Source: Trypanosoma brucei
Taxonomy: Eukaryota
Direction: 5' to 3'
Assembly: GCA_000002445.1 (NCBI GenBank)
Contig: CP000069.1
Coordinates: forward strand, 416,001-480,000
DNA: 64,000 nucleotides
Numbering within the stretch: the first letter of the stretch is position 1; each line of letters begins with the position of its first letter. The notes under the pieces were generated by a model, which was not told the origin of the DNA, did not search any database, and was given only the letters and a program-made list of their open reading frames with translations. Made by a program: the position numbers and the translations under genes. Shown in pieces: positions 1,146 to 56,928 of this stretch.

Positions 1146-2726
<1,581 letters not shown>

Positions 2727-2906
2727 CTATGCACATACCACACGCACATGCCCTCCAGGTGTATTACAGTTTCACTACACAGCCGCTCGCCGAAGAAGAT
2801 AGAATTGAGGGGGAGTAAAAAGGGAAGGAAATAAAAAAAAAAACCAAGCAATAATGAACGAGAAACACCAATCACAAGGTGAAGCGCAACCCAAGACTAC
2901 GCCACC

Positions 2907-4487
<1,581 letters not shown>

Positions 4488-4667
4488 CTATGCACATACC
4501 ACACGCACATGCCCTCCAGGTGTATTACAGTTCCACTACACAGCCGCTCGCCGAAGAAGATAGAATTGAGGGGGAGTAAAAAGGGAAGGAAATAAAAAAA
4601 AAAACCAAGCAATAATGAACGAGAAACACCAATCACAAGGTGAAGCGCAACCCAAGACTACGCCACC

Positions 4668-6248
<1,581 letters not shown>

Positions 6249-6428
6249 CTATGCACATACCACACGCACATGCCCTCCAGGTGTATTACAGTTCCACTAC
6301 ACAGCCGCTCGCCGAAGAAGATAGAATTGAGGGGGAGTAAAAAGGGAAGGAAATAAAAAAAAAAACCAAGCAATAATGAACGAGAAACACCAATCACAAG
6401 GTGAAGCGCAACCCAAGACTACGCCACC

Positions 6429-8009
<1,581 letters not shown>

Positions 8010-43886: not shown

Positions 43887-45329
43887 TTACTTCTCACTTA
43901 ATAATTCCAACCAGTTAACCACACCCTTCGGCACCTCCATGGAAAAGACGTCTCCCATGCAGTTAACAAAATGCAGTGTGTCCTCTGCATTCCTGAAACA
44001 TTTGTCCTCAGCGATAAATGTTGAAGTCACCTCAAAGTTCTCGGGTGACATCTTTATATTGCGTATATCCTCCAGAAACTTCTCTTCCTCCTTCATGTGT
44101 CGCGCAAATGATGCCATCACCCCTAAAAGCAGCGGATAGTCGCCCAAGTCTTTCATCCGCATGCCACTGCGGTAAAAATTTTGCAGCCACGGCTCATCGG
44201 CGATATCAAGAGAAAAGTGCCGCAGAATGTAAGGCATACCAGTAATCCTGAGGATTTTGTGTCTCAACTCGTCTGTACTCTCCTTATTATCGGATCTCTC
44301 GGCCATCCTACCTGCTTCCTCAATGCTAGCATCCGCCACTTGTAGACATCCCTGCAAGTGTTCATAATTTTTCGCATGGTAGTGTGTATAGAGAAGCTCA
44401 ACTCCCACTAAACGAGCATCGGTCGTCCACAACTGCTGTGGTGTATGCCAATGTGTCACCAGTTGTTCCGCGTAAGCTGCCAATGGGGGAACGCGGTAAG
44501 CTAAGAAACGTATGAACCGTCTCTGAGCCTCCACCGTGGGGTCTAAGTTCGCTTCAGCGAGGCAATGAATTGCGTCGATAGCTGTATTCATCTTCCGTGT
44601 GAGAGAAGCTGATATAATTACCGCGGACGCAGCCGTCTGATCCCAGCGAGCAGAGGAATGACTCATCCACAACCATAATGTTAACACCTTCCTGTGGTCT
44701 CCACCCCGAGCGAGAAACAACAACACCGCGCCATAGTCCCTTGGACTGACAAATGACTTACGCAGAGCGATGTTAAACGCATCCACAACATTTTGCCTAT
44801 CCTCAGCCAAGGTGTGATCGCTCAGCAAGCATAATGAGTTAATAAGCGTACCTGAGAGATGTGGCACCTCCCGTATTTCACGCATTAACATCTGCTTCAC
44901 CTCCCGTGCGTAATCTGTTTTCGCCACCTTTTCCGCAAGGGCGCAAAGAAGCTCACAACACATGCCCACCGATACCGGGCGAAGCGCGTCGGCTAATTGT
45001 AACAGAGTCTTCGCCTCAATGCCATTTTTAGAAGATAATAATTGCATGAGCTGCGTCCCTACTTCCCGGGCAGAGGGATGGGAAGAAAGCAACGCCACCA
45101 CCCGCCGTGGTTCCCTCTGCAAAAGATAACTTCGACCCAAGCCAGCAGCTATGGGGACAGGAAGCGGTGCAACGGGATATTTCTCACGGAATGCTGACGC
45201 AACTTTCTGCACAGCTGCGGCATCATCGGGTACAAACTCGCTGCCGCACAGCAACTGCTGGAAACTAAGCAGCCGTGTAGCGCATCGCCGCATACCCAAA
45301 CACAATCGAGGGTTCTTTCTACATAACAA
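43887..45329 (-). CDS. Hypothetical protein, 480 aa. The N-terminus resembles a mitochondrial presequence (Arg-rich, amphipathic)
   Basis: Long ORF. MLCRKNPRLCLGMRRCATRLLSF at the N-terminus. Confidence 0.55.
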   Translation of the reverse strand: MLCRKNPRLCLGMRRCATRLLSFQQLLCGSEFVPDDAAAVQKVASAFREKYPVAPLPVPIAAGLGRSYLLQREPRRVVALLSSHPSAREVGTQLMQLLSSKNGIEAKTLLQLADALRPVSVGMCCELLCALAEKVAKTDYAREVKQMLMREIREVPHLSGTLINSLCLLSDHTLAEDRQNVVDAFNIALRKSFVSPRDYGAVLLFLARGGDHRKVLTLWLWMSHSSARWDQTAASAVIISASLTRKMNTAIDAIHCLAEANLDPTVEAQRRFIRFLAYRVPPLAAYAEQLVTHWHTPQQLWTTDARLVGVELLYTHYHAKNYEHLQGCLQVADASIEEAGRMAERSDNKESTDELRHKILRITGMPYILRHFSLDIADEPWLQNFYRSGMRMKDLGDYPLLLGVMASFARHMKEEEKFLEDIRNIKMSPENFEVTSTFIAEDKCFRNAEDTLHFVNCMGDVFSMEVPKGVVNWLELLSEK

Positions 45330-47492: not shown

Positions 47493-49202
47493 TTACCACA
47501 GTGTGGAGGTCCTGCGTAAGCTTGCCGCGGGAACAAATTCCTCTGGAGGCAGCAGATCCTTCGTAACGGGGCAACGATACAAAACGCGTACTTCAGGACC
47601 GCGATGTGGCATGGGTGATGAATGAGAGGCTTCATTCGATTTTTCCCTGATTTGTTTTTCTAAGGCTGCCTTGTAAGCTTCCCTTTTTTGCTTGGCTTTC
47701 CGGTTCTCTTCCTCTGTATACCGTTTAGTCTCCGAAATAGTTTCCTGAAGAAGGCGTTTCTCCTCTTCCAGAGCCCTATCCTTTGCTGCACGTTGTGCCT
47801 CCCGACTGGAGGCAATGTGTTTTTCTAAGTTGTCATAGAACTCTTGCTCTCTTTTCAGCCGGTTTTTCTCCTCCCTCTCATGAGCTGAGTAAAGCAAAAA
47901 TTTATCATGGCACTCATTTGCAGAGCTAACTTTCTTCAGGCCCTCTTTCTTCTTGCTTGCATCTCGCGTAACCATGGACATGGCTTTTTGTCTCTTCAGC
48001 TTTTCAGCTCTTCGACTTTGCTTTTCTTCCCGCTCGATTCGCTCTATGTATTGATTAAACTTCTTTTCACCCTCTATTCTTTCCAGCCTCTCTCCCTTGC
48101 GGATTCTCTCAGCTTGCTCAGCTAGTTGCTTGTTCACCTCAGCAAGCTTACGACATTCATTCCATCTAACTGAAGGGTTGTCACCCTCGAAGCGAAAAAA
48201 ACATTCAGTTGGTTGACCAAATGAGAGCGCTGCCGCGCCCTCCTCGACTGCACCATCGTCACTCCCGCGAGCCGCTTGTAAAGACGGATTTCTTCCCACA
48301 TCGTGGGCGTATCTTTTCCCACCGAAAGAAACACCCTTGCCTCCACCATAGTTCCATGCTGCCTCCATGGCACGCTGACGTTGGCGTTCATCCCTTTTTT
48401 TCTCAGCAAGTTCACGATTTGCATCCATTAGCGCTACACATCGATCCCGTTGAATACGCTTTCTCCTTGTATCATTATTCCACGGAAAAGGCTCGTAGTG
48501 CAGATCCCAGGCCGCTCCTTCAACTGGCTCCCCCTTTTTATGATTATCTAGTGATTCAAACGCTGCCTGCTGCAGTTGGTCTCGTAAGGCCTTCTTTCCT
48601 TCTATGGTTTTCTCGGGATCTAACGCATTACATGCCACGGTGTAACTTTCTATTCCGTTTGCTTCAGTCTCCATGCGCCGGCGTTGCTGAGCCTCACGTT
48701 CAGCTCTTGTGCGGTGCGCTTGCTCCATATTTACCTCTTGTAAACTCTTCAGTAGCCTTTGCTTGCACTTCGCGTCGTCCCTTTCACCCCAAGCATCAAC
48801 CTCATGACGGTGGCACCGGTGACGCACCTTCTCTCCCATTGCTCGTTGCTTTTTCACTTCTGCCAGCTGCATGTTGATCGCGTTTCTCGACGGTATCTTG
48901 GCATCGTATATGAGGTACTCTACATTAGGGCGATTATTTTTCCCAACTACTGTCATGACTTCACCACTGAACTCAGCCATGGGCGCGCGAGGGGCTTGCA
49001 GTTCCTTTTTTGTGTTTACCGCAGTTGCAATCCGCGCGACCTTTTGACTCACAGGCGGCCGTCTGCACGGGGACATGACGCGATGGGTGTTCCGCACCGC
49101 CTGCGCTTTTGGTTGAGGTGGTACGGGGTCATTGGGAATCGAAACCTTCAAGTGCTGAAGAAGTGCAAACTCCTGCGACGCGCATTCCATAGGGTTGTCC
49201 AA
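47493..49202 (-). CDS. Highly charged (Glu/Arg/Lys-rich), likely coiled-coil hypothetical protein, 569 aa
   Basis: Long ORF with ERxxE/KR-rich repeats. Confidence 0.55.
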   Translation of the reverse strand: MDNPMECASQEFALLQHLKVSIPNDPVPPQPKAQAVRNTHRVMSPCRRPPVSQKVARIATAVNTKKELQAPRAPMAEFSGEVMTVVGKNNRPNVEYLIYDAKIPSRNAINMQLAEVKKQRAMGEKVRHRCHRHEVDAWGERDDAKCKQRLLKSLQEVNMEQAHRTRAEREAQQRRRMETEANGIESYTVACNALDPEKTIEGKKALRDQLQQAAFESLDNHKKGEPVEGAAWDLHYEPFPWNNDTRRKRIQRDRCVALMDANRELAEKKRDERQRQRAMEAAWNYGGGKGVSFGGKRYAHDVGRNPSLQAARGSDDGAVEEGAAALSFGQPTECFFRFEGDNPSVRWNECRKLAEVNKQLAEQAERIRKGERLERIEGEKKFNQYIERIEREEKQSRRAEKLKRQKAMSMVTRDASKKKEGLKKVSSANECHDKFLLYSAHEREEKNRLKREQEFYDNLEKHIASSREAQRAAKDRALEEEKRLLQETISETKRYTEEENRKAKQKREAYKAALEKQIREKSNEASHSSPMPHRGPEVRVLYRCPVTKDLLPPEEFVPAASLRRTSTLW

Positions 49203-49836: not shown

Positions 49837-51087
49837 CTATTTTTGCAGCAAGTGTTTTTTTACTAGTTCGCACATCCTACGATACTTCAACTTCATAACT
49901 TCCTCCTCTGAGGGAAGCTTGGCATTAGCGACGAGATGGCGCTCACCACACTCATTCGCGTTCACATCAACTTTATCGTACAATACACTGTAAAAAAAAT
50001 TTCTCAAAGTCTTCAAGAGAATACCCTGCGACCATGCAAATCCATGGCTCGCTTCACCGGGCATAATTAATGGTCGTGACACGTACATATCCAACTGCTG
50101 CAACTCCACGGTCCTGTTCCCGACAATAGTCAAGATGCAGCCGCTATTCTTGTTCACATCACAGAAATGCGGAGCTGAAAAGAGGAAAATGTAGCTGGGC
50201 ACGCGAAGGCCCTTACGTATCCTGCCAAACATCCAACCAGGAAGATACCTGGACTCTCTGTACCGGTCAAAACTCATAAAGTTTTCCGAGCGCTCACTCG
50301 ACGCGTGGAATTCGATACCAGCAATGTGGGTGAATAAGTCGTTGCGCAACAGAAAGTTACACAACGCGTTATGGGTGTACCTCAGACAATTTCCTGTTGC
50401 CGTGTGTGAGCCGACGAAGGCGCAACCGGCGTAAAGCTTGTCCTCCTCCTCGTTCATGGGTTGATTTTGAACAAACTCATTTAACCGCAGCCGTGAGCGC
50501 TCCCTGGAAATTTCTTCTGTGAAACGGTACGTAGAAGCAATCCCACTGGACGAACAGAAAAAACGCTTATTTATAATGCAGGCTACAGGGAGCGTGGAAA
50601 AGAAGCGTCGCACCGTTTCTTCAATGGAATCCAGTGGAACATCACAGTGTATTGAGCGCAGGCGGAGCTCTGCTCGCAACGATCCGAAATCTCCCGGGGG
50701 GAACGGGTAGAACATTTCGTGGCGTCCAACCAGCGGTGTAACAGAGGGAAGGTCCAGCATACAAAGGGCGAGCATGTACAAAACCTCAACGGAGTGATGG
50801 CCGCCGTCCACGTAGTTGCCGAGGAAAACAAGATTCAGCTTTCCTTGTATTGCCCTACTTAAGACGTGCGTATCTAAACAGTGAGCCAAGTCTGCGGCGT
50901 GCCCTCTGCATGGACCTATGACGACTGTGTCACCAGAAACTTCCTCGAGTGGGCGACCACCATCGCGACGTGAAGCGGCCGCCGAAAGCACCTTAAGGAA
51001 CTCCACCGTCGCAACACATTCGCCGCGCAGCACCGACTTCACTGCCTCTCCTATATGTAGATGTGCTTCTGTCGATACAGATGGCAT
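49837..51087 (-). CDS. PPP-family Ser/Thr phosphatase-like protein (calcineurin-like metallophosphoesterase fold) with degenerate catalytic motifs. Putative pseudophosphatase, 416 aa
   Basis: GDxHG -> VIGPCRGH. GDxVDRG -> GNYVDGGHHS (Arg lost). GNHE -> GRHEM. Downstream HGG-like and SAPHF (SAPNY-like) elements retained. Start re-called to the Met at 51087 (MPSVSTEAH), because codons 1-32 of the supplied ORF translate a pyrimidine tract followed by AG. Confidence 0.65.
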   Translation of the reverse strand: MPSVSTEAHLHIGEAVKSVLRGECVATVEFLKVLSAAASRRDGGRPLEEVSGDTVVIGPCRGHAADLAHCLDTHVLSRAIQGKLNLVFLGNYVDGGHHSVEVLYMLALCMLDLPSVTPLVGRHEMFYPFPPGDFGSLRAELRLRSIHCDVPLDSIEETVRRFFSTLPVACIINKRFFCSSSGIASTYRFTEEISRERSRLRLNEFVQNQPMNEEEDKLYAGCAFVGSHTATGNCLRYTHNALCNFLLRNDLFTHIAGIEFHASSERSENFMSFDRYRESRYLPGWMFGRIRKGLRVPSYIFLFSAPHFCDVNKNSGCILTIVGNRTVELQQLDMYVSRPLIMPGEASHGFAWSQGILLKTLRNFFYSVLYDKVDVNANECGERHLVANAKLPSEEEVMKLKYRRMCELVKKHLLQK

Positions 51088-51117
51088 CCGCACAATCCTA
51101 ATCCAATACTTATACCG

Positions 51118-51176
51118 TGGGCAAAGAGAGAAAAATATCAAGGAAGAAGGTAAAATGGACATAACAGGGAAAGAGT
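51118..51176 (-). promoter_or_regulatory. Polypyrimidine tract plus AG (minus strand). Candidate SL trans-splice acceptor for the phosphatase-like gene
   Basis: Minus-strand sequence tctttccctgttatgtccattttaccttcttccttgatatttttctctctttgccc...ataag...attag, then ATG. Confidence 0.5.
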
Positions 51177-51295
51177 TCTCCATATACTGTTTTTAATGCG
51201 CAAAACTTGTATTTTAAAATTTGTTGCATATCCGAGTATGCACGTACACGGAGGAGGTGGTTGGTGTACTCCCTCAGCCGGCTTCCTAGCTGTCA

Positions 51296-51932: not shown

Positions 51933-53429
51933 CTACATTACCCCCACGGCACCGCTAGACGCACCGCGTGACATTCCTTCCATCCTACGTTTCAGTAGAT
52001 ACTGTTTCTGGCGTGTCCTTTGGTAATCGTAGCGCCACACGAGCTCCTGATGGTAGTGATCCACCACACCCTGTGGGTTCCGTCCTGAGAGGAACCCAAT
52101 CTTGTATAATTTTCGCTCGAAGTCACTTGAGGCATGCCACAACGGTCCCCAGCCAAGACCGGCTAGCTCACCAGAATTAATAAGAAAACGAAGAAACGAT
52201 CGATACTCGTACTCGTCAAAGTTGCCGATTTGAATCGGATGAAAGTGTGAATCCTTCTCCGGGTCATACGGTGCGTACTCATCCAAACTATTAGCGAAAC
52301 GGTCCGTTTCAACGTTCGGAAACCCGCTAATTCCATCAAACGGCTTAAAGTCCCTTGTTGTGCACGTAATGAAGAATTTGTTAGGGTCGTCACCGGAGAG
52401 GATCATTTTATTTAACCCACGAACGAAACTGAGCCGCGAGGCGGGGATGCGCGGAAGCTCTTGCGGGTAAAGGTCAATATCAGTTGAACTTTCGTTAAAA
52501 GAAGCCAAACCACGAAGAAAGTCTGGGTGCGGATACCGGAAGTGCGTCTCGTGCGAAAAGAGGTTCCAGCCGTCCACAACAATAACAACTGGAAGCTTCT
52601 TTTCTTCACTCAATTCGTCCATGAGAAATTTAACACACACACTTTGGCGATCAATTGAGGCCGGGGCCACGGCTCGGTGTCCCCACTCGCACAACTCATA
52701 GAGGTTTTGTGGTTGCCGTTCCCCTTGTTCGGTAGGCAGGTCCTTCGGAGTGCATCTCAATTTCCATGAGGTTAGTGTTGCACGATTGGCGACGGCAAAG
52801 TACTTCAAGAAGGAGCGTGCAGCATCCGGAGCATCAAAAAATCCGGGTAAAATAGTGCTTGGCCAACACCACTCTCCGTGAGTCCAAGCTTTCGCATCTG
52901 GAACATACAGCGTCACGATATTTCTACTTCGAGCGAAGTGCACCACTTGACACATCAGTGCACTCTTTCCGCATCCGGTTGGTCCGTCGACGATAAACCC
53001 TGTTCTGCCGTTCGTCAAAGAACTAAGCACAGAACGTTTGGTATGCCAATGCTGTACTTTGTCAACAAACAAATTAAGCAGGTGCGTTTCCTTACGATAC
53101 AAGAACCCCCTCGGGTGCCCAGGGGGCATCGTCTGAAATACTCTTCCTCCTAAACCTTCTGGAAAAAATTGTATCAACTCGTCGTTACCTACACAGTACA
53201 TCGAGTTAATGTCGTTAAAGCTAAGCTGCGTTGGGGTGAGCTGCGGCGGATGCGAGTACGTCCGGCTAACGGTTCGGACGGGAACACCGTTCTTTAACTT
53301 ACGTGTTTCCTTCAGGGGAATTGCACCATCCCACATTGCTACCGGTGCTTCACAGGCGTCTGTGTAACATGTGACGGGGGGGCGCATGTACATTGCAGCC
53401 AAGCTCTTCTTTAGGGTCTTGGAGCGCAT
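51933..53429 (-). CDS. P-loop NTPase, possibly mitochondrial ribosomal protein S29 / DAP3-like, 498 aa
   Basis: Walker A GFIVDGPTGCGKSALM. Walker-B-like VVIVVDGWN. The overall length and the single P-loop placement resemble DAP3. The family assignment comes from memory only. Confidence 0.4.
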   Translation of the reverse strand: MRSKTLKKSLAAMYMRPPVTCYTDACEAPVAMWDGAIPLKETRKLKNGVPVRTVSRTYSHPPQLTPTQLSFNDINSMYCVGNDELIQFFPEGLGGRVFQTMPPGHPRGFLYRKETHLLNLFVDKVQHWHTKRSVLSSLTNGRTGFIVDGPTGCGKSALMCQVVHFARSRNIVTLYVPDAKAWTHGEWCWPSTILPGFFDAPDAARSFLKYFAVANRATLTSWKLRCTPKDLPTEQGERQPQNLYELCEWGHRAVAPASIDRQSVCVKFLMDELSEEKKLPVVIVVDGWNLFSHETHFRYPHPDFLRGLASFNESSTDIDLYPQELPRIPASRLSFVRGLNKMILSGDDPNKFFITCTTRDFKPFDGISGFPNVETDRFANSLDEYAPYDPEKDSHFHPIQIGNFDEYEYRSFLRFLINSGELAGLGWGPLWHASSDFERKLYKIGFLSGRNPQGVVDHYHQELVWRYDYQRTRQKQYLLKRRMEGMSRGASSGAVGVM

Positions 53430-53737
53430 CCCTTAGTGATTTATTGGCTTGACCTAAGTTGTCCAGCAGAAAGTAATACGGGGGGAAGTGGGAAAAATAT
53501 TTACGCACGATGAACCTCATGTAGTTCGGAGACGGTGATAGTGCAAGGGGCGTCTTTGGCCCCCCACGCACAACGTGATGCAAAAAAGTCTGAAGTCAAA
53601 AGCGTAGCTTCCTCCCTTTTCTCATCAACAGACGGCGATACACACACGCACATTTCTTTATTACTAGGGGTTTGAGTAAAACGAGAGAAAGAGCTGTCAC
53701 CACGGAGCGTGATAACCAATATGCACCCTTGTTGTGA

Positions 53738-54586
53738 CTACTGAGAAGTCATTAGGTTCTGGCATACCTTTGCAGAGCTACTGTAGGGAGGGTTTTGCAC
53801 AGCCAACTCAGCATATTTGGGGTCCTTTTCCATGCAATACGGAGTCATCGTCCACGGCACAGTTACATCTTCCGGTTCGCCTTGATGAAGAGCAATAGTC
53901 CTGATTAACCCACCGCTGGAACCGTCTCGACTGTACGCGTGCGCGACGGCGCGCTGACAGAAACGGATGCATTCTTCTTTCGTCATCCCCGGTTTGTAAT
54001 TGGCGTCGAAGAATGAATACAGGAAAACAGAACCACTTCCCCCCAGAGCATAGTCCAGCTTCACGCACGCACCACCGGTAGGAATGCTATAAACAGATCC
54101 CCCGTTCAAAGGATCATAACCAGCCACAATAATACCAGCGGTTATATTCCACTTGTTCATATAGCACAGCTTTTTGAATATATTGGCTGCTGTTGCAACA
54201 TTCACCGGCTGCGAAATATCTGTCTCATAGCTCTCTAGATAATTTGCTGTCTGCTCGGCGAGTGCCTGAGTGTCGGCGGCAGACCCACTCCGGCAGCAGT
54301 ATATCCTTTTGGCCAACTTCGTCAGCTTGTTGCTCGCGCGATTTACCACATAAGCTCCCGTGGAAGTTCGCGAATCAGCGGCCAGAACGACTCCATCCTT
54401 ATAAGAAACAGCCATGATGGTTGTTCCGAGTGAAACCGCCTCACTCAGTTGCGGGTCGAGGACTGCAGCATCTGGTTGGAAATATTCCCTTGCAGTTTGG
54501 GCTGGTCCATTTGCTGTCGGTTCATGCGCCAGCGTCAGCGGGTACGAGGGTTCGTGCAAGAGTGTACCGGGGGGGCGTCTCAACAT
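53738..54586 (-). CDS. 20S proteasome beta-1 subunit (PSMB6/Pre3 type), 282 aa including propeptide
   Basis: Processing site G|TTIMAVSYKDGVVLAADSRTSTGAYVVNRASNKL closely matches beta-1 (human PSMB6 [34 protein letters not shown]). Conserved Asp17, Lys33 and Ser/Gly contexts. Confidence 0.85.
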   Translation of the reverse strand: MLRRPPGTLLHEPSYPLTLAHEPTANGPAQTAREYFQPDAAVLDPQLSEAVSLGTTIMAVSYKDGVVLAADSRTSTGAYVVNRASNKLTKLAKRIYCCRSGSAADTQALAEQTANYLESYETDISQPVNVATAANIFKKLCYMNKWNITAGIIVAGYDPLNGGSVYSIPTGGACVKLDYALGGSGSVFLYSFFDANYKPGMTKEECIRFCQRAVAHAYSRDGSSGGLIRTIALHQGEPEDVTVPWTMTPYCMEKDPKYAELAVQNPPYSSSAKVCQNLMTSQ

Positions 54587-54830
54587 TCTTTCTTATTTCT
54601 GGATTTCTTTGTGGGAAACTTTGTTAAACTCCGAAAAAAAAAATAGATGTCATAAGTATCGGCTAGTGAGACCGGGGGAGCGGTGTGACACTGACAGGGT
54701 TAACTAAGTGATGTTCCCACCACGCAAAAATAGTTGACAAGTTAAGCTCCACTATCGGCATTGGACTCTCCCCCCTTTTGGTTCTTCTTTTTCTCCGTGT
54801 TAAGAACAACTGGAGGACAAGAGGTACTTA

Positions 54831-55478
54831 CTAGAATATAGTGAATGTTTTCTTGAGCTCCTCGCCCACATTATGGTCCGTTGGGTTTGCCATCGCCTCA
54901 TATACAACATTAGTCGCCGTCTGCTGGTAAACCGGTCTCCCCGTCGACTCGCCGAAAAGTTCTATCCGAAGTATGTGGGTTTCGTCGTCTCCGAAACTAT
55001 GCTCGAATAGCATTCCCATACACCCTGCTGAGGAAAATTTCGCCGGGTTCAAACGGTACGCTATGCGGTCGTCGGCAGACACCTGGGCGAGTTGAATCTC
55101 CTCCTGGTGTTGTAAACGTCGAACGGAATCAAATCCAACAACACCGGTGGGGTTGCAGAACAGCTTCACTTGGGAAGGGGCGAAATCGTCATTGGTTCCA
55201 AGGATCGATACGGATCTAATACGGCAAACCTCCTTGAGTGGAATGAGCAAAAGCAACTCCGGGTCAGCATCACTACATATTGGTTGATCGTTGTCACCTT
55301 TCGCCGGATCAAAGATACGCGCTGCCTCTGAAACACTATTTCGCGAATTCCACAGCTGCAAAAGATCAACGTCCACTTGTGCATTTAGTGGCGACCCCAC
55401 ACCAAACATACCGCCGCGCGCAAATCCGTCCTGAAGATGATCATGTGTCCCTGTGCCTTGACGGCAGTTGCAAGGCAT
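54831..55478 (-). CDS. PITH-domain protein (proteasome-interacting thioredoxin C-terminal-domain family, DUF1000), 215 aa
   Basis: ...LLLIPLKEVCRIRSVSILGTNDDFAPSQVKLFCNP...FDSV...AYRLNPAKFSSAGCMGMLFEHSFGDDETHILRIELFGESTG is PITH-like. Start re-called to the Met at 55478, because the upstream 44 codons are poly-Phe/Leu translated from an A/T run. Confidence 0.6.
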   Translation of the reverse strand: MPCNCRQGTGTHDHLQDGFARGGMFGVGSPLNAQVDVDLLQLWNSRNSVSEAARIFDPAKGDNDQPICSDADPELLLLIPLKEVCRIRSVSILGTNDDFAPSQVKLFCNPTGVVGFDSVRRLQHQEEIQLAQVSADDRIAYRLNPAKFSSAGCMGMLFEHSFGDDETHILRIELFGESTGRPVYQQTATNVVYEAMANPTDHNVGEELKKTFTIF

Positions 55479-55787
55479 CAACTGTTTATTTATTTTTTTT
55501 AGCTCATCCAAAAACAATCCATCGCAACATGAGGTAAATGAGCGCAAAAAAAAAAAGGTCAACAACGAAAGGGCGGTAAAGAAAAAACAAAACAAAAAGC
55601 AGCGCTCCACTAAACATTATCAGAAATAATGGAGACTTTCAAGGAGGCACGCACATCATGATAACAAAAGCACGATGAAAGTACGGAGACGGCTTCACTC
55701 CGCTCACACAGCGAACACCGTCGTTAATGTGAATCTTACTTCTCATTAAATACCCCATGCACACACACGACGAAAGAAATCATCCCT

Positions 55788-56687
55788 CTACTGGCATTTC
55801 CCCGGCGCAAAGAGCGCGGTATGATATCTGAACATTTCGTAAGTGACAGCGGAGGGAGGCATTATACCTTGCTCAGAAAAAACAAGCGTGACCATCGATG
55901 GAGGAACAAATTCTACGAGGGGTACATCGCTACTCCCTTCGGGCTGCCTGAGATCTGCGGTGCTGAGGGGGAAAATGTGGGCAAACTTAAAGGTTTCACA
56001 GAGGACGTAGAAGGGAACATTCATAGCAGATGCCACTGTTGCTATTTGTAGGGATCCCGTTGAATGAACGAGCCCTCCATGCTCGGTAACACAGTAAGCA
56101 CCGGTGACGACAAAGTCTACTTTGCTCATAACAGCGCCTACACCGGCATCTGGTATGATGGTGCAGTATTGCTGAAGCTTTTCTTTAAGTTTCAACCCTT
56201 CATGAGTTGCAGATGCTTTTCTTAAAAGTGCCTCACCAGTACCCTGAGGGTACTTTGCTGTTGCCGGACGACCCTCACAAATGTAAAAATGAACACCCTC
56301 CCGCTCCTGAATGGCACAGGCAATCGCGAGAGCCAACAAATCACCACAACCGTGAACCAGTATTCGCGAGGTGCTTCGGATGAAAGGAAGCATGTCATTG
56401 ATTTGGTCTTTTTGGCTGCACTCAAAATCCCTGAGTCGTGACTCGCACCGTGCATTCATGTCAACTAAACTACTCCTTAAGTCTGGGCTGTTTGCCGCGT
56501 CTTTAGTTAGGTCTATGCGAAAGCGCTCAAAGCCGTCACCGATAGACTTGTAGCCCTTCAACATATTCGTTATTTCCTTATCGAGCTCTGAATATGTTGA
56601 AAACTGTTTAGATGTCAGCAGCTCTTGCACCTCCTTCACCACCCTGATCATGATGCTAATATCATAGTCATCATGGGGCACTTCCAT
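55788..56687 (-). CDS. eIF-2B alpha/beta/delta-family protein (most like eIF2B-alpha/GCN3; a sugar-phosphate isomerase of the same fold is the alternative), 299 aa
   Basis: ILVHGCGDLL, GRPATAKYPQGTGEAL, VDFVVTGAYCVTEHGGLVHSTGSLQIATVASAMNVPFYVLCETFKF match the IF-2B family core. Start re-called to the Met at 56687 (MEVPHDDYD). Confidence 0.6.
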   Translation of the reverse strand: MEVPHDDYDISIMIRVVKEVQELLTSKQFSTYSELDKEITNMLKGYKSIGDGFERFRIDLTKDAANSPDLRSSLVDMNARCESRLRDFECSQKDQINDMLPFIRSTSRILVHGCGDLLALAIACAIQEREGVHFYICEGRPATAKYPQGTGEALLRKASATHEGLKLKEKLQQYCTIIPDAGVGAVMSKVDFVVTGAYCVTEHGGLVHSTGSLQIATVASAMNVPFYVLCETFKFAHIFPLSTADLRQPEGSSDVPLVEFVPPSMVTLVFSEQGIMPPSAVTYEMFRYHTALFAPGKCQ

Positions 56688-56928
56688 GTTTACTCCCCCC
56701 TTGATAGACACACTAGACCCAAAAGCAAACCGACATGAGTAGCAGCAATAACAGGAACATGAAAGCATCAATAGAAAGTGACGTTTTTTTTTTTTTTGAA
56801 GGTAGCGAGTAAAGAAGGGTAAACCAGCAGTTATCAGGCACTGAGATGGTAATACAGTCGATCTGGAGAAATGATTCACTTCTCTGTGTGGACACAAAAA
56901 TACGCATAGATAGGACCAACAATGGGTG

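Follow-up and report, generated by a model that had tools for sequence, protein, structure and literature searches.

In the window analysed here, a 64,000-nucleotide stretch of Trypanosoma brucei DNA, we examined an open reading frame on the minus strand, an orientation that the first-pass annotation of this DNA had not given. The frame at 49837-51087, whose stop codon occupies 49837-49839, is T. brucei TREU927 gene Tb927.6.1230, and its product is 100% identical to XP_845245 / UniProt Q585C4; the gene ID for Q585C4 was taken from Additional file 1 of Brenchley et al. 2007 (PMC2175518). In GenBank the protein is labelled only as 'hypothetical protein, conserved'. The features assigned to the locus are as follows:

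51088 to 51183, minus strand: 32-codon N-terminal extension in the 448-aa GenBank model, putative 5' UTR
49837 to 51087, minus strand: Tb927.6.1230 coding sequence, 416 aa plus stop (list of open reading frames, Pfam and calcineurin A matches)
50899 to 50916, minus strand: motif 1, GPCRGH (residues 58-63) in place of GDxHGQ (translation and calcineurin A alignment)
50800 to 50820, minus strand: motif 2, GNYVDGG (residues 90-96) in place of GDxVDRG (alignment and translation)
50713 to 50727, minus strand: motif 3, GRHEM (residues 121-125) in place of GNHE (alignment and translation)
50542 to 50556, minus strand: CSSSG in place of CVHGG, with the metal-ligand His replaced by Ser180 (profile alignment, family table and translation)
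50305 to 50322, minus strand: AGIEFH in place of RAHE, with the metal-ligand His replaced by Ile258 (family alignment)
50164 to 50178, minus strand: SAPHF (residues 304-308), equivalent of the PPP motif SAPNY (alignment and translation)
50092 to 50112, minus strand: strand TVELQQL, equivalent of calcineurin beta-14 (VMNIRQF), the PxIxIT docking edge (alignment)
49978 to 50043, minus strand: amphipathic helix GFAWSQGILLKTLRNFFYSVLY, aligned with the calcineurin-B-binding helix (HMMER alignments)
49849 to 49908, minus strand: predicted C-terminal basic amphipathic helix EEEVMKLKYRRMCELVKKHL (structural model)

The 448-aa start was rejected in favour of the 416-aa protein. The start Met aligns with 51087 in all six Trypanosoma orthologues, the TrypTag N-terminal tagging primers were built on the ATG at 51087, and equiperdum annotations of the protein also have 416 aa. 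The 32-codon extension contains a pyrimidine-rich stretch at about 51118-51151, with the uninterrupted core TTTTTCTCTCTTTGCCC, as well as AG dinucleotides at 51110/51109 and 51099/51098. It is probably a 5' UTR carrying a polypyrimidine tract and candidate AG splice acceptors, from which we infer the splice site.

The first-pass annotation had described a PPP-like fold, and Pfam, the PDB calcineurin A chains and AlphaFold/Foldseek all agree with this description. Pfam Metallophos (PF00149) matched Tb927.6.1230 with 25.6 bits (E 2e-5) and so passed its gathering cut-off (21.5), and phmmer searches with the single sequence against PDB calcineurin A chains gave E values of 1e-14 to 1e-10. Using a profile built from seven orthologues, we obtained E 1e-36 for 9b9g_I, a construct hit at three places. 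Conventional calcineurin A chains (1aui_A, for example) reached about 1e-21, while BSU1 and PP1 (E 3e-9) scored more weakly than calcineurin A. The AlphaFold (AF2) model has a confident PPP/calcineurin fold (pLDDT 81.7, pTM 0.80), which Foldseek aligned to calcineurin A over about 370 columns with E 4e-21 and TM 0.65/0.74. Foldseek matches to calcineurin, PP1 and PP5 spanned E 1e-17 to 4e-21, with ranks 1-34 all occupied by calcineurin A, calcineurin-fusion constructs included. Outside its own family, the best library matches of the protein bear all calcineurin motifs. By sequence, profile and predicted fold, Tb927.6.1230 is a PPP-fold protein nearest to calcineurin A (PP2B), with PP1 ranking lower.

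The closest known systems are human PPP3CA (PDB 1AUI, 1M63) and T. cruzi TcCaNA/TcCaNA2. The domain order is shared with calcineurin A, i.e., a PPP fold followed by an amphipathic helix aligning to the calcineurin-B-binding helix, whereas identity is just about 19-21% by Foldseek and the model contains an inserted, disordered stretch of some 16 residues (264-279). Trypanosome calcineurin A proteins are short, bind CaNB and lack the calmodulin-binding and autoinhibitory domains. Tb927.6.1230 resembles them in its shortness (about 380-420 aa). Its chain stops at residue 416, beyond a single basic helix, and has no autoinhibitory segment; since trypanosome CaNAs lack both domains, this feature is non-discriminating in the lineage.

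The blocks GPCRGH, GNYVDGG, GRHEM and SAPHF that had been named earlier were all found in the minus-strand translation. Residue equivalences were drawn from the orthologue profile alignment, combined with the numbering of human calcineurin A-alpha. In motif 1, the calcineurin A alignment places Pro59 and Arg61 at the metal-ligand Asp and His, as had been proposed, and also His63 at the position of Gln. In motif 2, the reported loss of the phosphate-binding Arg stood (Gly95), but the replacement of the bridging Asp by Asn91 had been missed; Asp94 is kept. GRHEM is present as listed, but Arg122 in this apparently conserved block replaces the metal-ligand Asn, which had been overlooked, while the general-acid His123 is kept. 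The changes first named were therefore correct but fell short of the full damage, four having escaped notice, namely Asn91, the GRHE substitution and the His to Ser and His to Ile exchanges in HGG and RAHE.

Altogether, six of six canonical metal ligands (Asp90 to Pro59, His92 to Arg61, Asp118 to Asn91, Asn150 to Arg122, His199 to Ser180 and His281 to Ile258) and both phosphate-binding arginines (Arg122 to Gly95 and Arg254, the RG arginine, to Thr231) are replaced in Tb927.6.1230. The only catalytic residues kept are Asp121 (Asp94 here) and the general-acid His151 (His123 here). The single-sequence phmmer alignment misplaced the RG/RAHE region (residues 230-260), for which the profile alignment and family table were used instead; Ile258 was placed by aligning IRG-x-x with canonical IRGHE/LRAHE in the family alignment.

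The first-pass annotation had recognised that ligands conserved at shifted positions would overturn its reading. We found no alternative Asp/His/Asn ligand set in the profile and family alignments, the only candidates being His63, adjoining motif 1, and His261, which follows the lost RAHE His by three residues and whose placement is uncertain because the HMMER profile alignment is gapped around 258-261. Shifted ligands were rejected, as His261 and His63 are unable to rebuild a six-ligand site. Catalysis via Cys60 was likewise rejected, there being no CX5R motif and the Cys not being conserved outside Trypanosoma. Given the replacement of all six metal ligands, as judged from the alignments and the predicted structure, canonical metal-dependent catalysis by Tb927.6.1230 is very unlikely, and the original call of a likely pseudophosphatase is well supported.

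The open reading frame is intact. Identity is 51-63% across seven Trypanosoma species and about 37-38% to other trypanosomatids. GPCRGH and FLGNYVDGG are invariant in the seven Trypanosoma sequences. Across the family at large, the Pro, the Arg and the His of motif 1 are each present in 17/18 sequences; in motif 2, Gly95 is found in 23/24 and Asp94 in 24/24. Arg122 and His123 of motif 3 occur in 15/24 and 16/24 sequences, respectively, and His261 in 13/25. In a 22-sequence family whose mean column identity is only 23%, conservation reaches 90% or more at Pro59, Arg61 and Gly95. The library search retrieved 17 family representatives at E < 1e-30 and canonical calcineurins only from about 1e-20, and a neighbour-joining tree set the GPxRG family apart from sequences with intact motifs.

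Besides Angomonas and diplonemids, no fewer than seven Trypanosoma species carry an orthologue of Tb927.6.1230. Members with GPxRG, GDxIDGG and GRRE occur in the diplonemids Sulcionema specki, Rhynchopus euleeides and Artemidia motanka, where GRRE marks the loss of the general-acid His. A word-index profile search was swamped by PPP words and gained one further diplonemid sequence. The relatives of Tb927.6.1230 also include metagenomic sequences. The replacements are conserved from trypanosomes to diplonemids. What appear to be 'degenerate' motifs in fact form a signature that is conserved (GPxRGH, G[DN]x[IV]DGG and GRHE), which is new here.

In TrypTag, C-terminally tagged Tb927.6.1230 was assigned to 'cytoplasm, flagellar cytoplasm' and the N-terminally tagged protein to 'cytoplasm[patchy]'. 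Its mRNA is bound by CSD1 and drops on CSD1 depletion during RBP6-driven development. The protein is not in the SILAC proteome supplement. Literature searches returned no functional study of Tb927.6.1230 (biochemistry, assay, interaction or phenotype), and the earlier remark that PPP-family pseudophosphatases are little studied in kinetoplastids was a fair one.

The pseudophosphatase status of Tb927.6.1230 is already known. Table S5 of Brenchley et al. 2007 (PMC2175518) gives its motifs, in agreement with our alignments, as GPCRG, GNYVDGG and GRHE under 'other catalytic mutations', alongside the orthologue LmjF12.0050 with GPIRG, GNYIDGA and GKHE, and kPPPs of such kind were termed pseudophosphatases in the same work. 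Substrate-trapping or scaffolding roles were then proposed for the kSTP pseudophosphatases, with non-canonical activity also raised as a possibility for the group (Szoor 2010, PMC2994645). Reviews from 2010 and 2017 treat the group as pseudophosphatases with suggested substrate-trap or scaffold roles, and PMC5743797 puts Tb927.6.1230 under 'kSTP (pseudo)'. With the three classic motif changes in print since 2007, this part of the finding holds but rediscovers a known annotation. The kPPP/kSTP group, in which the gene is listed by ID with its substituted motifs (Brenchley 2007, Szoor 2010), is a heterogeneous bin and no clade, whereas Tb927.6.1230 is specifically calcineurin-derived. The group is also described as 'kinetoplastid-specific', whereas the family of Tb927.6.1230 is also found in diplonemids, and this label in current annotations should therefore go.

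A second kinetoplastid PP2B group (Tb10.70.0350, Tc00.1047053510187.500 and LmjF36.1980), with the motifs GDVRG, GNYIDSC and GNHE, has been flagged as possible pseudophosphatases (PMC2175518). These proteins are calcineurin-like and share with Tb927.6.1230 the changes of the motif 1 His to Arg and the motif 2 Asp to Asn, but unlike Tb927.6.1230 they retain Asp in motif 1 and an unaltered GNHE. The group was absent among close relatives of the Tb927.6.1230 family in the library search and family table, and the shared motif 2 Asn is probably convergent, because distant family members still have Asp. Loss of metal ligands from a calcineurin-like phosphoesterase fold is also seen in retromer VPS29 and in the B subunits of DNA polymerases alpha, delta and epsilon, which are protein-binding scaffolds. 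They belong to distant superfamily branches outside PPP, are without a calcineurin-B-binding helix and have no detectable sequence similarity to Tb927.6.1230.

We then considered the peripheral surfaces of the protein. The model predicts a helix at residues 349-370 (pLDDT about 60-75), which aligns to the human calcineurin-B-binding helix with Trp352/Ser353 conserved. Trp352 is present in 23/24 family members, and the Phe, the Ser and the hydrophobic spacing of the helix are also conserved. A putative calcineurin-B-binding helix is retained in the family, a feature that is new here. The strands equivalent to the PxIxIT docking edge are likewise retained, as judged by alignment, in most family members, which is also new: beta-14 reads LELRQF in most Trypanosoma orthologues, and beta-11 (DPGYRLYR) and beta-14 (IRQF) are kept in distant members. 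In T. brucei itself beta-14 has diverged, with LQQL for IRQF and Glu in place of the key Asn, an observation that speaks against a docking role in this species. The predicted C-terminal helix (residues 394-413, pLDDT about 70) contains Y402, R404, M405, C406, K410 and L414, all invariant in Trypanosoma, and gives a weak profile alignment with the calmodulin-binding segment of mammalian calcineurin A; any function of this helix would be speculative.

We consider it probable, with good confidence, that Tb927.6.1230 is an expressed, conserved and catalytically dead paralogue of the calcineurin A (PP2B) catalytic subunit. As for mechanism, our best guess is that it would act as a calcineurin-like subunit for docking or scaffolding, devoid of catalysis. 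The protein would be incapable of metal-dependent phosphoester hydrolysis and would work as a binding module, a reading we favour because the putative calcineurin-B helix is kept and the beta-11/beta-14 PxIxIT edge is kept in most members. Most likely, its partner in the cytosol would be calcineurin B or an EF-hand protein related to it. It might serve there as a scaffold or, alternatively, be a decoy that draws the regulatory subunit or docking-motif partners away from active calcineurin by competition. By homology, Arg61 and Arg122 may fill the former metal site and either stabilise the fold or maintain an anion-binding pocket.

A pseudophosphatase acting outside the calcineurin pathway, whose former active site binds phosphorylated substrates as a 'natural substrate trap', is rather unlikely in our view. 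Such a role has been suggested for kSTPs generally (Szoor 2010, PMC2994645), and a phospho-binding function had been put forward for this protein in the first-pass annotation. Two arginines and a histidine lining the former metal site could indeed bind phosphate, but the residues that contact substrate phosphate in calcineurin (the Arg122 and Arg254 equivalents) are lost. In PPP enzymes, moreover, the substrate phosphate is held largely by the metals, and the conserved calcineurin-specific peripheral elements would be needless for a pure active-site trap. The substrate-trap and calcineurin B/docking models are not mutually exclusive.

We regard as improbable the idea that Tb927.6.1230 is still an enzyme, in which the conserved pocket of Pro59, Arg61, His63, Asp94, Arg122, His123 and Glu124 acts on phosphoesters or in another reaction, either in the absence of the canonical binuclear metal centre or by means of new ligands including His63/His261. 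Conservation of the pocket residues clearly exceeds the family background, and His63 (17/18) and His261 (13/25) are new, family-specific histidines; as His123 and Asp94 are also kept, a metal-independent or non-canonical activity is conceivable. However, the full set of metal ligands and both phosphate-binding arginines are replaced, and neither Pro at the calcineurin Asp90 position nor Gly at the Arg122 position can bind metal or phosphate. The diplonemid GRRE sequences are also without the general-acid His, so that not one catalytic residue is shared by all family members, and we know of no metal-independent PPP. That the locus is a decaying pseudogene or a mis-annotated, functionless reading frame, with the motif changes reflecting erosion, is barely credible and already effectively refuted by conservation and expression: although the catalytic motifs are heavily degraded, the GenBank name is uninformative and the upstream start is doubtful, the 416 codons are uninterrupted, orthologues extend to diplonemids, the replaced motifs stay invariant instead of drifting apart, AlphaFold gives a confident, well-folded model, the tagged protein is seen in cells and the mRNA is regulated.

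Extending the calcineurin-derived binding module to the whole family, it is tempting to speculate, although this is doubtful as a complete account, that the GPxRGH family is an ancient pseudo-calcineurin of at least kinetoplastids and diplonemids, whose retained helix still partners calcineurin B or some other EF-hand protein, and which acts as a Ca2+-responsive decoy or scaffold tuning calcineurin signalling, with two conserved arginines occupying the former metal sites. To our knowledge, functionally characterised PPP-family pseudophosphatases are rare, and we know of none from trypanosomatids. If true, a pseudo-calcineurin decoy would be among the first functionally defined PPP-family pseudophosphatases. 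The value of Tb927.6.1230 itself is modest and lies in its being cleanly calcineurin-derived, with a strongly constrained 'dead' site and a retained putative regulatory-subunit helix, which offers a concrete, testable hypothesis of calcineurin B binding or of a docking-motif decoy.

A single long ORF occupies 49837-51183 on the minus strand; its 416-codon version (49837-51087) begins at the second ATG. Translated, the ORF matches T. brucei brucei TREU927 XP_845245/UniProt Q585C4 at 100% identity. Brenchley et al. 2007 (PMC2175518; Additional file 1) list Q585C4 as Tb927.6.1230, class kPPP (a kinetoplastid PPP group that includes pseudophosphatases), and the window therefore belongs to T. brucei chromosome 6. 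In GenBank, the TREU927 and gambiense proteins are annotated with 448 aa, from a start 32 codons further upstream. We favour the 416-aa model as better supported, in agreement with the coordinates of the first-pass annotation. The Met aligned with 51087 is the first residue in all six Trypanosoma orthologues compared, T. equiperdum proteins are annotated at 416 aa and the ATG at 51087 was used by the TrypTag N-terminal tagging primers. The additional segment is as follows.

51088-51183, minus strand: N-terminal extension of 32 codons, without counterpart in the orthologues

Within this extension, a pyrimidine-rich stretch (~51118-51151; uninterrupted core TTTTTCTCTCTTTGCCC) is followed by AG dinucleotides at 51110/51109 and 51099/51098, an arrangement typical of trans-splice acceptors, which suggests a putative splice site here. 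The extension is thus probably 5' UTR rather than protein.

Each of the 24 ORFs of 250 aa or longer in the window is on the minus strand and the cumulative GC skew declines steadily, which would fit one polycistronic unit without a strand switch. The upstream neighbours (51933-56897, minus), a DAP3/mS29-like mitochondrial ribosomal protein, a proteasome subunit, a PITH-domain protein and an IF-2B family protein, are ordinary housekeeping genes with no functional link to Tb927.6.1230. Downstream, minus-strand ORFs at 47493-49202 (569 aa) and 43887-45329 (480 aa) matched nothing in Pfam at E <= 0.001; the former is very Lys/Glu/Arg-rich and resembles a charged coiled-coil protein. Four head-to-tail ORFs at 1146-8003 (minus), each listed as 524 aa, are spaced by exactly 1761 bases, and the one copy scanned encodes a cysteine protease of the papain family, in which an I29 propeptide and a C-terminal DUF3586 extension were recognised. 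The array, which may continue past the window start, is probably the T. brucei cathepsin-L tandem array of chromosome 6.

The PPP-like fold proposed from the sequence is real, and Pfam, PDB sequence, profile and predicted-fold matches all agree on it. Pfam Metallophos matched Tb927.6.1230 at 25.6 bits (gathering score 21.5, E 2e-5), and phmmer against PDB sequences ranked calcineurin A chains (E 1e-14 to 1e-10) above BSU1 and PP1 (E 1e-7 to 1e-5). A profile built from seven Trypanosoma sequences reached E 1e-36 with 9b9g_I, a construct matched in three stretches, and ~1e-21 with ordinary calcineurin A chains (1aui_A, for example), versus ~3e-9 for PP1 and BSU1. The AlphaFold2 model, computed from a 22-sequence family alignment, has a mean pLDDT of 81.7 and a pTM of 0.80. 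In Foldseek against the PDB, calcineurin A, including calcineurin-fusion constructs, fills ranks 1-34, followed by PP1 and PP5; the best match, 1m63_E, gave E 4e-21 and TM 0.65/0.74 over ~370 aligned columns at 19-21% identity. By these comparisons Tb927.6.1230 is a calcineurin-A-like PPP, a narrower assignment than "PPP-like".

The metal ligands of human calcineurin A-alpha are Asp90, His92, Asp118, Asn150, His199 and His281; His151, paired with Asp121, is the general acid, and Arg122 and Arg254 bind phosphate. Residues were mapped to this numbering using profile and family alignments, which also put right residues 230-260, misplaced by the single-sequence phmmer alignment.

Canonical catalytic motifs and their counterparts in Tb927.6.1230
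GDxHGQ: G58-P-C-R-G-H63; Asp to Pro59, His to Arg61
GDxVDRG: G90-N-Y-V-D-G-G96; Asp to Asn91, Arg to Gly95, Asp94 kept
GNHE: G121-R-H-E; Asn to Arg122, His123 kept
CVHGG: C178-S-S-S-G; His to Ser180
vRGcs: T-G-N-C; Arg to Thr231
(L/I)R(A/G)HE: I255-A-G-I-E; His to Ile258

By these alignments, none of the six metal ligands is left, nor is either of the phosphate-binding arginines. The first-pass annotation had noted three of the changes and overlooked five; it took GRHEM as a conserved block, in which Arg122 in fact replaces the metal-ligand Asn. Its pseudophosphatase reading is supported by the loss of all canonical metal ligands, and it survives a search of the alignments for shifted ligands, where His63 and His261 are the sole candidates: two candidates cannot restore a site that needs six. 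We infer with high confidence that canonical metal-dependent catalysis is absent. For this very gene, the literature already contains both the motif changes and the pseudophosphatase reading. Brenchley et al. (2007) enter it in Table S5 as GPCRG, GNYVDGG, GRHE and kPPP, in the section "Group 2 - Other catalytic mutations", with GPIRG, GNYIDGA and GKHE for the L. major orthologue LmjF12.0050, which a 2017 review classed as "kSTP (pseudo)" (PMC5743797).

As judged from alignments, the "degenerate" motifs are a conserved signature rather than erosion. GPCRGH and FLGNYVDGG are invariant across seven Trypanosoma species (51-63% identity to the T. brucei protein). An orthologue-profile HMMER scan of 1.84 billion representatives returned 17 proteins at E < 1e-30 before a score step to ~1e-20, where fully canonical calcineurin motifs start. 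Of the 18 family sequences covering motif 1, 17 have Pro for Asp90, 17 have Arg for His92 and 17 have His for Gln; Arg122 is changed to Gly in 23/24 members and Asn150 to Arg in 15/24. No member of the family alignment has His at the His199 or His281 positions, while Asp121 (24/24) and Trp352 (23/24) are retained. Pro59, Arg61 and Gly95 reach 90% conservation or more in the 22-sequence alignment, where mean column identity is only 23%, and a midpoint-rooted neighbour-joining tree without bootstrap splits the family from intact-motif sequences. The remodelled site is under purifying selection. His63, directly after motif 1 (GPxRGH), is characteristic of the family (17/18); canonical sequences covering the motif have Gln there (31/31). 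His261, three residues past the lost RAHE His, occurs in 13/25 family sequences and also in 9 canonical ones.

The family extends beyond kinetoplastids. Besides the trypanosomatid Angomonas deanei and metagenomic sequences, it includes three representatives from EukProt diplonemid transcriptomes (Sulcionema specki, Rhynchopus euleeides and Artemidia motanka), which read GPVRG/GDMIDGG/GRRE and have also lost the general-acid His. The 702-aa Artemidia motanka transcript (P0028) carries precomputed Pfam PF05118 (aspartyl/asparaginyl beta-hydroxylase) plus Metallophos, either a true domain fusion or a chimeric transcript assembly.

Regulatory surfaces of calcineurin A seem partly retained. Residues 349-370 (GFAWSQGILLKTLRNFFYSVLY), a predicted helix with pLDDT ~60-75 in the AlphaFold2 model, align to the calcineurin-B-binding helix with preserved hydrophobic spacing. 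The calcineurin PxIxIT docking edge is formed by the beta-11 and beta-14 strands; distant family members (DPGYRLYR, IRQF) closely conserve the canonical DAGYRMYRK and IRQF. The beta-14 strand reads LELRQF in most Trypanosoma, whereas that of T. brucei is less conserved (VELQQL, with Glu where calcineurin has a key Asn). A C-terminal basic helix (394-413), with Y-R-M-C-K-L positions invariant in Trypanosoma, aligns weakly to the calmodulin-binding segment. After the former RAHE strand, a ~16-residue insertion (264-279; ~50251-50298, minus; pLDDT < 50) lacks a counterpart in calcineurin A and varies among Trypanosoma save for a conserved Glu and Glu-Ser.

The TrypTag supplement records "cytoplasm, flagellar cytoplasm" for the C-terminal tag and "cytoplasm[patchy]" for the N-terminal tag; the protein is therefore made, and cytosolic, in procyclic forms. 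CSD1 binds the Tb927.6.1230 mRNA, which drops on CSD1 depletion during RBP6-driven development. Our literature search found no functional study of the gene, and no other main-text mention of it than the CSD1 result.

Tb927.6.1230 is thus a cytosolic protein with a calcineurin fold that has lost every canonical metal ligand, and we tentatively suggest that it may be a non-catalytic calcineurin-like subunit. Helix 349-370 would be the contact for calcineurin B or a different EF-hand protein, docking-motif partners might be bound as well, and the protein could be a scaffold or a decoy of the active enzyme. The arginines at two former metal-ligand positions may fill the metal sites, where they could give the fold stability or preserve an anion pocket. 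The pseudophosphatases of this kinetoplastid group have been suggested to be natural substrate traps, scaffolds or proteins that gained another activity (Szoor 2010; PMC2994645). That Tb927.6.1230 is purely an active-site phospho-trap seems to us quite unlikely. A non-canonical enzyme, in keeping with the conserved pocket and the retained His123 and Asp94, is more improbable still; His123 is lost in diplonemid members. A pseudogene is excluded by conservation and expression. A Ca2+-linked pseudo-calcineurin decoy or scaffold, common at least to kinetoplastids and diplonemids, is a possibility that we hold with considerable doubt. Small additions to the published reading are that the protein is assigned to calcineurin specifically, that the altered motifs form a conserved signature, that diplonemids have the family and that the regulatory helix is apparently retained.
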